64,000 nt of DNA from a virus (lineage: Duplodnaviria; Heunggongvirae; Uroviricota; Caudoviricetes). The notes beneath the pieces are model-generated. The model saw nothing but the letters and a program-made list of their open reading frames with translations. It was not told the DNA's origin and did not search any database. Positions 45,645 through 45,710 of the stretch are shown here, piece by piece (the stretch's first letter is position 1; every line of letters begins with the position of its first letter). The stretch lies in IMG/VR virus record IMGVR_UViG_2537561979_000003; one strand, given 5' to 3'. The position numbers and the translations under genes were made by a program.

Positions 45645-45710
45645 ATTGCTCTAATAAAAAACGTGATGAGTGTACATCACGTTTTAAAAATATGGAATTA
45701 TTAGAGCAAT
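45645..45710. promoter_or_regulatory. pair of convergent C1 operator-like sites flanking a 22-bp palindrome / terminator
   Basis: ATTGCTCTAATAAAAAA (45645-61, plus) and ATTGCTCTAATAATTCC (45694-710, minus) flank acgtgatgagtgtacatcacgt. Confidence 0.55.

Follow-up and report, generated by a model that had tools for sequence, protein, structure and literature searches.

In phage P1, 22 operators of the C1 repressor have been described, with a 17-bp asymmetric consensus (PMC8546580) that is the same as the one used in this work, ATTGCTCTAATAAATTT. The closest described counterpart of the locus studied here is the pair OpmgRa (former Op86a) and OpmgRb in the P1 record AF234172, which labels each of the two sites 'monovalent', notes on OpmgRa that it 'controls expression of pmgR and pmgS', and places a predicted promoter, PpmgR, at the same location. 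In the P7 record (AF503408) the sites are named Op(sht[a]) and Op(sht[b]) and are annotated as regulating shtA-shtB (the sht operon), to which that record assigns sheath functions. At another P1 promoter, Plpa with its operator Olpa (Op94), the -35 starts from operator position 15 and is followed by a 16-nt spacer and a -10 of TATTAT, and the pmgR promoter candidates of divergent relatives are built alike; at Pc1, the operator Oc1a abuts the -35 in a similar geometry. Plpa and Pc1 together have spacers of 16-18 nt and a -10 of TATTAT or TATAAT, and both stand in the P1 record without the 'predicted' label. Olpa is annotated with a single operator, whereas Op86 has a second, inverted operator downstream of the proposed start, with the putative terminator lying between the two. 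The bivalent operators of P1 (Oc1ab, and a site of this type at 59362-59389 of the DNA analysed here) likewise have two inverted C1 sites on one promoter, but there the two 17-mers overlap with an offset of 11 bp and make up a single composite site, whereas the Op86 sites are separate, lie 49 bp apart centre to centre and are each monovalent. The hairpin between the Op86 sites resembles the Rho-independent terminators of Enterobacteria in its 7-8 bp core stem, four G-C pairs, 6-nt loop and 6-U tract directly 3', and departs from ordinary intrinsic terminators in that the U-tract doubles as a repressor site and that a promoter is apparently nested in the stem-loop.

The window, i.e. the whole stretch of 64,000 nucleotides that was analysed, belongs to a P1-family phage-plasmid. 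At this locus it is 99.1-99.7% identical to P1, P7 and SJ46, and across 44100-47200 its nucleotide identity to P1, P7, SJ46, RCS47 and others is 99.0-99.7%. The 126 nt around the intergenic region show zero differences between the window, P1 and P7. The sequence at 45640-45720 reads tgtagATTGCTCTAATAAAAAACGTGATGAGTGTACATCACGTTTTAAAAATATGGAATTATTAGAGCAATattattctga, and the neighbouring genes lie on the minus strand throughout. Compared with AF234172, the whole intergenic sequence, the flanking genes (pmgQ, pmgR-pmgS) and the positions and orientation of the operators are identical; without any difference in sequence, the present reading adds a terminator and assigns the -10 to the hairpin loop instead of TAAAAC. 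P7 has the identical sequence and arrangement, and only the gene names and the assigned (sheath) functions differ. The feature at 45645-45710 is hence real and already known, being the annotated Op86a/Op86b pair upstream of pmgR-pmgS. As a catalogued regulatory site recovered from sequence alone, it matters little beyond P1 biology; what is added is comparative evidence for the inner repeat as a strand-specific RNA terminator and an explanation of the departures of Op86b from the operator consensus. The locus is present in 687 plasmid records, chiefly from Escherichia and Salmonella, and a search of Rfam families at 45645-45710 gave no match. The genes and operators concerned are the following.

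28213-29064, plus strand: c1 repressor gene, 283 aa, expected to encode the binder of both operators (open reading frame)
44148-45410, minus strand: pmgS (shtB in P7), 420 aa, second gene, directly after pmgR (open reading frame list, P1 and P7 records)
45412-45630, minus strand: pmgR (shtA in P7), 72 aa, first gene under the 45645-45710 region (open reading frame list, P1 and P7 records)
45635-45640, minus strand: Shine-Dalgarno AAGGTG of pmgR (read from the sequence)
45645-45661, plus strand: Op86b (OpmgRb in P1, Op(sht[b]) in P7), ATTGCTCTAATAAAAAA (consensus match; P1 protein_bind 82201-82217 and the P7 feature)
45694-45710, minus strand: Op86a (OpmgRa in P1, Op(sht[a]) in P7), ATTGCTCTAATAATTCC (consensus match; P1 and P7 features)
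45712-46413, minus strand: pmgQ (hdmD in P7), 233 aa, last gene of the upstream operon (open reading frame list, P1 and P7 records)

A search of the 64-kb window with the consensus ATTGCTCTAATAAATTT, allowing up to 3 mismatches, identified 16 C1-operator-like sites, against 0.26 expected from shuffles (shuffle maximum 2). Op86a and Op86b each contain a perfect 13-nt core, ATTGCTCTAATAA, and three mismatches to the consensus that are confined to positions 14-17. The two sites converge, forming a perfect 13-nt inverted repeat (ATTGCTCTAATAA / TTATTAGAGCAAT) with 40 nt separating the arms; as 17-mers they have 32 bp in between, and they are without the composite layout of a bivalent operator. The earlier note had proposed two convergent C1 operator-like sites here, and this proposal is borne out to the base, with the ends exactly as given and the sequences identical to OpmgRa/OpmgRb of P1 and Op(sht[a/b]) of P7; the orthologous P1 intergenic region, when compared, proved identical and has both sites annotated as operators. 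Judged by this identity, Op86a and Op86b are C1 operators, base for base those catalogued in P1 and P7. The c1-coi region of the window has 95.8% nucleotide identity to c1-coi of P1. A full-text literature search for 'Op86' found no mention of that name. Op86a starts 1 nt past the pmgQ stop codon, and it is one of several C1 operators that start 0-2 nt from a preceding stop codon, among them OpmgT after pap (43553-43569), Op86a after pmgQ (45694-45710) and Olpa after pdcB (34074-34090). Such adjoining of operators and stop codons indicates that operon boundaries are very tightly packed in this phage.

The simplest reason for operators at 45645-45710 is that they lie in the promoter region of the downstream pmgR-pmgS genes, an explanation that was absent from the earlier note. 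A published table lists pmgR as essential and pmgQ and pmgS as non-essential (PMC10695390, where the pmgR entry cites its ref 73), and pmgR is reported to be needed for infectious particles. Since pmgR is reported as essential, a correct placement of its promoter and of the adjacent terminator should be useful for the engineering of P1 phagemids and P1-like resistance plasmids.

We were able to compare the locus with a set of orthologs made up of Cronobacter phage JK004 and 16 contigs with divergent PmgR variants; 13 distinct upstream sequences entered the alignment. PmgR homologues are confined to P1-like elements, with full-length matches that are 72-100% identical, and a more distant comparison is therefore impossible. 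A 72-aa PmgR orthologue in vB_EcoM-Ro157c2YLVW (MH160767 / NC_050153, 74630-74845) is labelled 'L: RNA-directed RNA polymerase L', an evident misannotation. A search of genome contigs with the pattern CTAATAA N30-50 TTATTAGWRCAA was too loose, with chance matches in AT-rich genomes among the matches listed. All 13 sequences align without indels from Op86a to Op86b, save for L006, where 1 nt is inserted; in that assembly the genes on either side are broken up into short calls, probably through frameshifts. The order of elements is the same in 13 of 13: the pmgQ stop, operator a, 12 nt, the hairpin, a T-run fused to operator b, the Shine-Dalgarno and the ATG. The operator spacing, too, is 49 bp centre to centre in every one of the 13. 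The operator cores themselves vary by lineage (ATTGCTC, ATTGTTC, TTTGTAC or TTTGTTC), and the cores of a and b are unlike in 8 of 12 relatives, which points to two binding sites rather than one selected long stem. In plasmids that are 95-97% identical to the window, the SNPs fall mostly outside the 66-bp block, with one in Op86a and one in the candidate -35. The conservation of the inner repeat had been set beforehand by the earlier note as a point on which its reading could fail; the hairpin and both operators were found in 13/13 orthologous sequences.

Between the two operators lies an inner repeat for which the following features were mapped.

45658-45685, minus strand: hairpin AAAACGTGATG-TACACT-CATCACGTTTT (minus-strand reading), proposed terminator stem-loop of the pmgN-pmgQ operon (inverted repeat, minimum free energy, covariation)
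45681 to 45675 and 45668 to 45662, minus strand: core stem CGTGATG/CATCACG
45653-45661 (45661 to 45653), minus strand: putative terminator U-tract TTTTTTATT, overlapping Op86b positions 9-17 (sequence, alignment)

The inner repeat had been described as a 22-bp perfect palindrome, and this description has to be corrected. The sequence acgtgatgagtgtacatcacgt resolves into ACGTGATG / AGTGTA / CATCACGT, an 8+6+8 hairpin in which the 6-nt loop AGTGTA is without self-complementarity and breaks the symmetry; the arms reach 11 nt when the flanking A/T positions are included (AAAACGTGATG / CATCACGTTTT). On the pmgQ-coding strand, the T-run TTTTTTATT is found directly 3' of the hairpin, which lies 30 nt past the pmgQ stop and has a dG of -12.9 kcal/mol for 28 nt. 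Across the 13 orthologous sequences, the 8-pair helix has 97.1% of its cells paired, and in three pairs both partners have changed. The covariation score of 0.373 compares with 0.258 for shuffles, and none of 500 shuffles equals the real alignment in pairing or covariation, the sample being 13 related sequences from perhaps 6-7 lineages; when the helix is slid to other registers, pairing falls to 23-66%. The stem is CGTGATG/CATCACG in P1, CATGGTG/CGCCATG in JK004 and GCGTGGTG/CACCACGC in L013. At twelve cells the pair is G·U and exists only in pmgQ/pmgR-sense RNA, such that 97% of cells are paired in the sense and 86% in the antisense direction, and the folding energies follow the same pattern (-10.9 to -16.9 kcal/mol in all sequences for the sense RNA; as weak as -5.8 in several for the antisense). 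The T-run is conserved (columns T86-T90, A91, T92 and T93 are invariant in the 13 sequences), but the A-run upstream is not. The strand-specific G·U pairs, together with an invariant T-run and a variable A-run, fit a one-directional terminator and argue against a DNA palindrome bound by protein. The hairpin and U-tract are thus, with good support from the alignment, inferred to form the intrinsic terminator of the pmgN-pmgO-pmgP-ppp-pmgQ unit, and the suggestion that the repeat and T-run terminate the upstream minus-strand gene gains from a stem kept by compensatory and sense-only G·U changes.

The overlap of the T-run with an operator has a visible consequence. The T-run TTTTTTATTAGAGCAAT and Op86b are reverse complements of each other, and Op86b reads AAAA where the consensus has ATTT (positions 14-17) because these bases lie opposite the T-run of the putative terminator. 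No terminator is annotated in the stretch of AF234172 that covers the locus, and a literature search for P1 transcription-start or termination data found none. A simple terminator scan of the locus did not flag the hairpin and gave no site at 45653-45685, a miss that is likely to have come from greedy stem extension through AAAA/TTTT, which took four T as A-T pairs and left fewer than five T in the tail window. An outer RNA stem formed from both operators (-26.9 kcal/mol, z = -6.3) was considered as a structure of its own and was rejected, given that the a and b cores differ in 8/12 relatives; by the evidence of the alignment, the complementarity of the outer arms simply follows from the presence of the same binding site twice.

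Two other readings of the inverted repeats bear on DNA rather than RNA. The inner repeat could be a site for a dimeric protein, or a cruciform, and in P1 itself the arms are indeed perfectly complementary; in relatives, however, the arm sequences change and no conserved half-site is kept, the 12 G·U positions of the sense RNA become A·C mismatches when read from the opposite strand or as a palindrome in DNA, and in L019 the hairpin is retained but its register has moved (by eye a stem of 7 bp, CGGCATG/CATGCCG, and a loop of 9 nt; 11 pairs in the computed fold). A DNA-level function of this kind is accordingly very improbable. The earlier note had also raised the idea of a recombination junction between modules, marked by the inverted repeats. 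Other parts of the window do show the mosaicism of P1-like genomes, and ppp is missing just upstream in some lineages, both of which would suit a junction. On the other hand, wherever DNA upstream of pmgR is available, pmgQ is the neighbour of pmgR-pmgS, and the intergenic region is itself homologous throughout. Divergence from the window is equal on both flanks, with no step at the intergenic region: nucleotide identity in the divergent relatives is 67-72% for pmgQ, 67-84% for the intergenic region, 68-78% for pmgR and 65-72% for pmgS (64-78% overall for the flanking genes of the compared lineages). With synteny unbroken and divergence even on either side, a module junction is barely credible at this place. 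As a separate observation, ppp, which is located upstream of pmgQ in P1, is missing in Cronobacter phage JK004, L018 and L019 (3-4% coverage), and the pmgQ-pmgR junction is unchanged in these. An intrinsic terminator hence stays the preferred reading of the inner repeat.

The placement of the promoter for pmgR-pmgS was evaluated with a weight matrix whose hexamer frequencies are approximate. Two placements were compared.

45669-45674, minus strand: candidate -10 TACACT of PpmgR, in the hairpin loop (weight matrix, conservation; proposed in this work)
45692-45697, minus strand: candidate -35 TTCCAT, 17-nt spacer, starting at Op86a position 14 (weight matrix)
45681-45686, minus strand: -10 TAAAAC of the predicted PpmgR as annotated (AF234172)
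45704-45709, minus strand: -35 TTGCTC of the predicted PpmgR as annotated, within Op86a (AF234172)

With this approximate matrix, the hairpin loop holds the -10 of the best sigma-70 match in 13 of 13 sequences. The loop -10 is TACACT in P1 and in the window and TATCAT or TATTAT in the relatives, and so always fits TAnnnT, a pattern that represents only three distinct loop sequences and for which shared ancestry could account. In the relatives the -35 starts from Op86a position 15, reading TTTACT with a 16-nt spacer in 7/12 and TTTAAT, TTCAAT or TTCATT in the rest. In the window both placements are weak and no better than chance would give, with 5.2 bits for the loop model and 4.0 for the annotated one, where a score of at least 5.2 is expected once per 164 nt by chance; in the relatives the loop model reaches 7.7-9.5 bits, scores that occur in the window background once per 859-3367 nt. 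The geometry of the loop model fits six other operator sites of the window, whereas a -35 inside the operator fits one site well (59373). These comparisons lend moderate support to the inference that the promoter of pmgR-pmgS is nested in the terminator, with its -10 in the hairpin loop, in which case the -10 of the predicted PpmgR in the P1 record (TAAAAC) is probably misplaced. A promoter scan flagged no promoter at the locus. A late (Lpa-dependent) promoter was also considered and was rejected: the intergenic region contains no -22 box, and the sole match (7/9) is inside pmgR.

The placement given in the P1 record is the main rival to a -10 in the loop. According to that record, the -35 TTGCTC lies in Op86a and the -10 TAAAAC at 45686 to 45681, which would put the start in the loop at ~45674 and make Op86b a downstream roadblock at about +13 to +29. 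This promoter carries the label 'predicted sigma 70 promoter' in AF234172, its 17-nt spacer is ideal, a promoter built in this way obtains a good score at 59373, an operator of the bivalent type, and its transcripts, too, would be without the 5' arm of the terminator. Against it, the 4.0 bits that it scores in the window are less than those of the loop model, it is never among the top four promoter matches of the relatives, and its -10 hexamer is not conserved, being TGAAGC, TGAGGC, TTAAGC or TGCGGC in relatives and having lost the A of position 2 in 7 of 13 sequences; the TAAAAC positions vary instead as an extension of the stem (alignment pair 66-87). We take the annotated placement as a possibility to be reckoned with, albeit a doubtful one. 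Under either position of the -10, the region would be a C1-repressed promoter nested in a terminator. A different question is whether the two operators act as a symmetric pair, for which the earlier note had suggested looping or cooperative binding of C1. Two C1 molecules, perhaps linked through the co-repressor Lxc, would then close a micro-loop or clamp across the promoter, and their contact would fix the 49-bp spacing. Such contact would fit the invariance of that spacing in 13 orthologs despite ~30% divergence, and Heinzel et al. in 1994 reportedly described C1-mediated looping at the Op99 sites of the c1 region. Those sites, however, are ~170-470 bp apart in P1 (record coordinates), whereas a loop of 49 bp (~4.7 helical turns) would be much smaller than usual, and all 32 bp between the operators are taken up by the nested promoter and terminator, which already account for a fixed spacing. 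Both sites are moreover 'monovalent' in the P1 record, and their outer arms are not strictly complementary (a versus b cores in 8/12 relatives), as fits independent sites. A literature search on C1 looping gave no usable text. Looping between Op86a and Op86b at 49 bp is unlikely, and we give little credence to cooperative binding across the promoter as a whole.

Taken as a unit, the 66 bp very probably constitute a C1-controlled regulatory region between two co-directional minus-strand units, in which a promoter would be nested in the terminator. With the -10 in the loop as preferred here, the -35 (TTCCAT, 45697 to 45692) would abut the 3' end of Op86a, the -10 (TACACT, 45674 to 45669) would be the hairpin loop itself, and transcription would start near G45662. 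A transcript that starts there would be without the 5' arm of the stem and would escape the terminator. C1 bound to Op86a would block the -35 region, and the stretch from about +2 to +18 would be covered by C1 bound to Op86b. Both operators would be occupied in a lysogen, leaving pmgR-pmgS silent; once C1 is inactivated, the promoter would fire, and read-through from upstream would still be stopped at the hairpin. A more far-reaching version, which we regard as rather unlikely, is that the 66-bp block is one integrated device, kept throughout the P1 family, in which the terminator, a promoter with the loop as its -10 and two inverted C1 sites are combined, the U-tract serving at once as one of these sites. 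In this device C1, perhaps with Lxc as a bridge, would hold the promoter like a clamp from either side at a fixed 49 bp, and C1 at Op86b would act as a roadblock that reinforces the termination of upstream read-through.

Several further features of the window were observed. The stretch 29065-30786, which extends from c1 (28213-29064) to pacB (30787-32271), comprises ~1.7 kb that are not in P1, where 28 bp are found instead. This insert holds a second immI-like cassette on the minus strand, which includes the following.

29097-30209, minus strand: 370-aa open reading frame
30206-30427, minus strand: 73-aa open reading frame
30482-30569, minus strand: C4 antisense RNA
30614-30692, minus strand: isrK-family RNA
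30767-30783: C1-operator-like site TTTGCTCTAATAAATTG

The region that matches the insert is annotated as 'ant' (antirepressor) in RCS47 and as Icd protein in 673R5. The insert is shared with JL22 (98%), RCS47 (95%) and 673R5 (88%) and is absent at this place from P1, P7 and SJ46. At 39313-43283, ~4 kb of the window cannot be aligned to the pmgT-pmgU-pmgV region of P1 except for a 117-bp piece, and P7 is likewise unlike P1 in that region (upf86.8, upf87.4). For Oppp of P1 (former Op83, upstream of pmgN), the counterpart would be expected at ~48411-48427, and no match within 3 mismatches of the consensus was found there in the window; the counterpart is either a weak match or has diverged. At 59362-59389, two inverted matches to the C1 operator overlap with an 11-bp offset, one of them being a perfect consensus, and the minus-strand site at 59373 comes with a good promoter, the -35 of which (TTGCTC) falls within the operator and is followed by 17 nt and a -10 of TAATAT. 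Finally, as expected for a P1-type genome, the window contains three tRNA genes.

56852-56924, minus strand: tRNA gene
58555-58627, minus strand: tRNA gene
58633-58705, minus strand: tRNA gene
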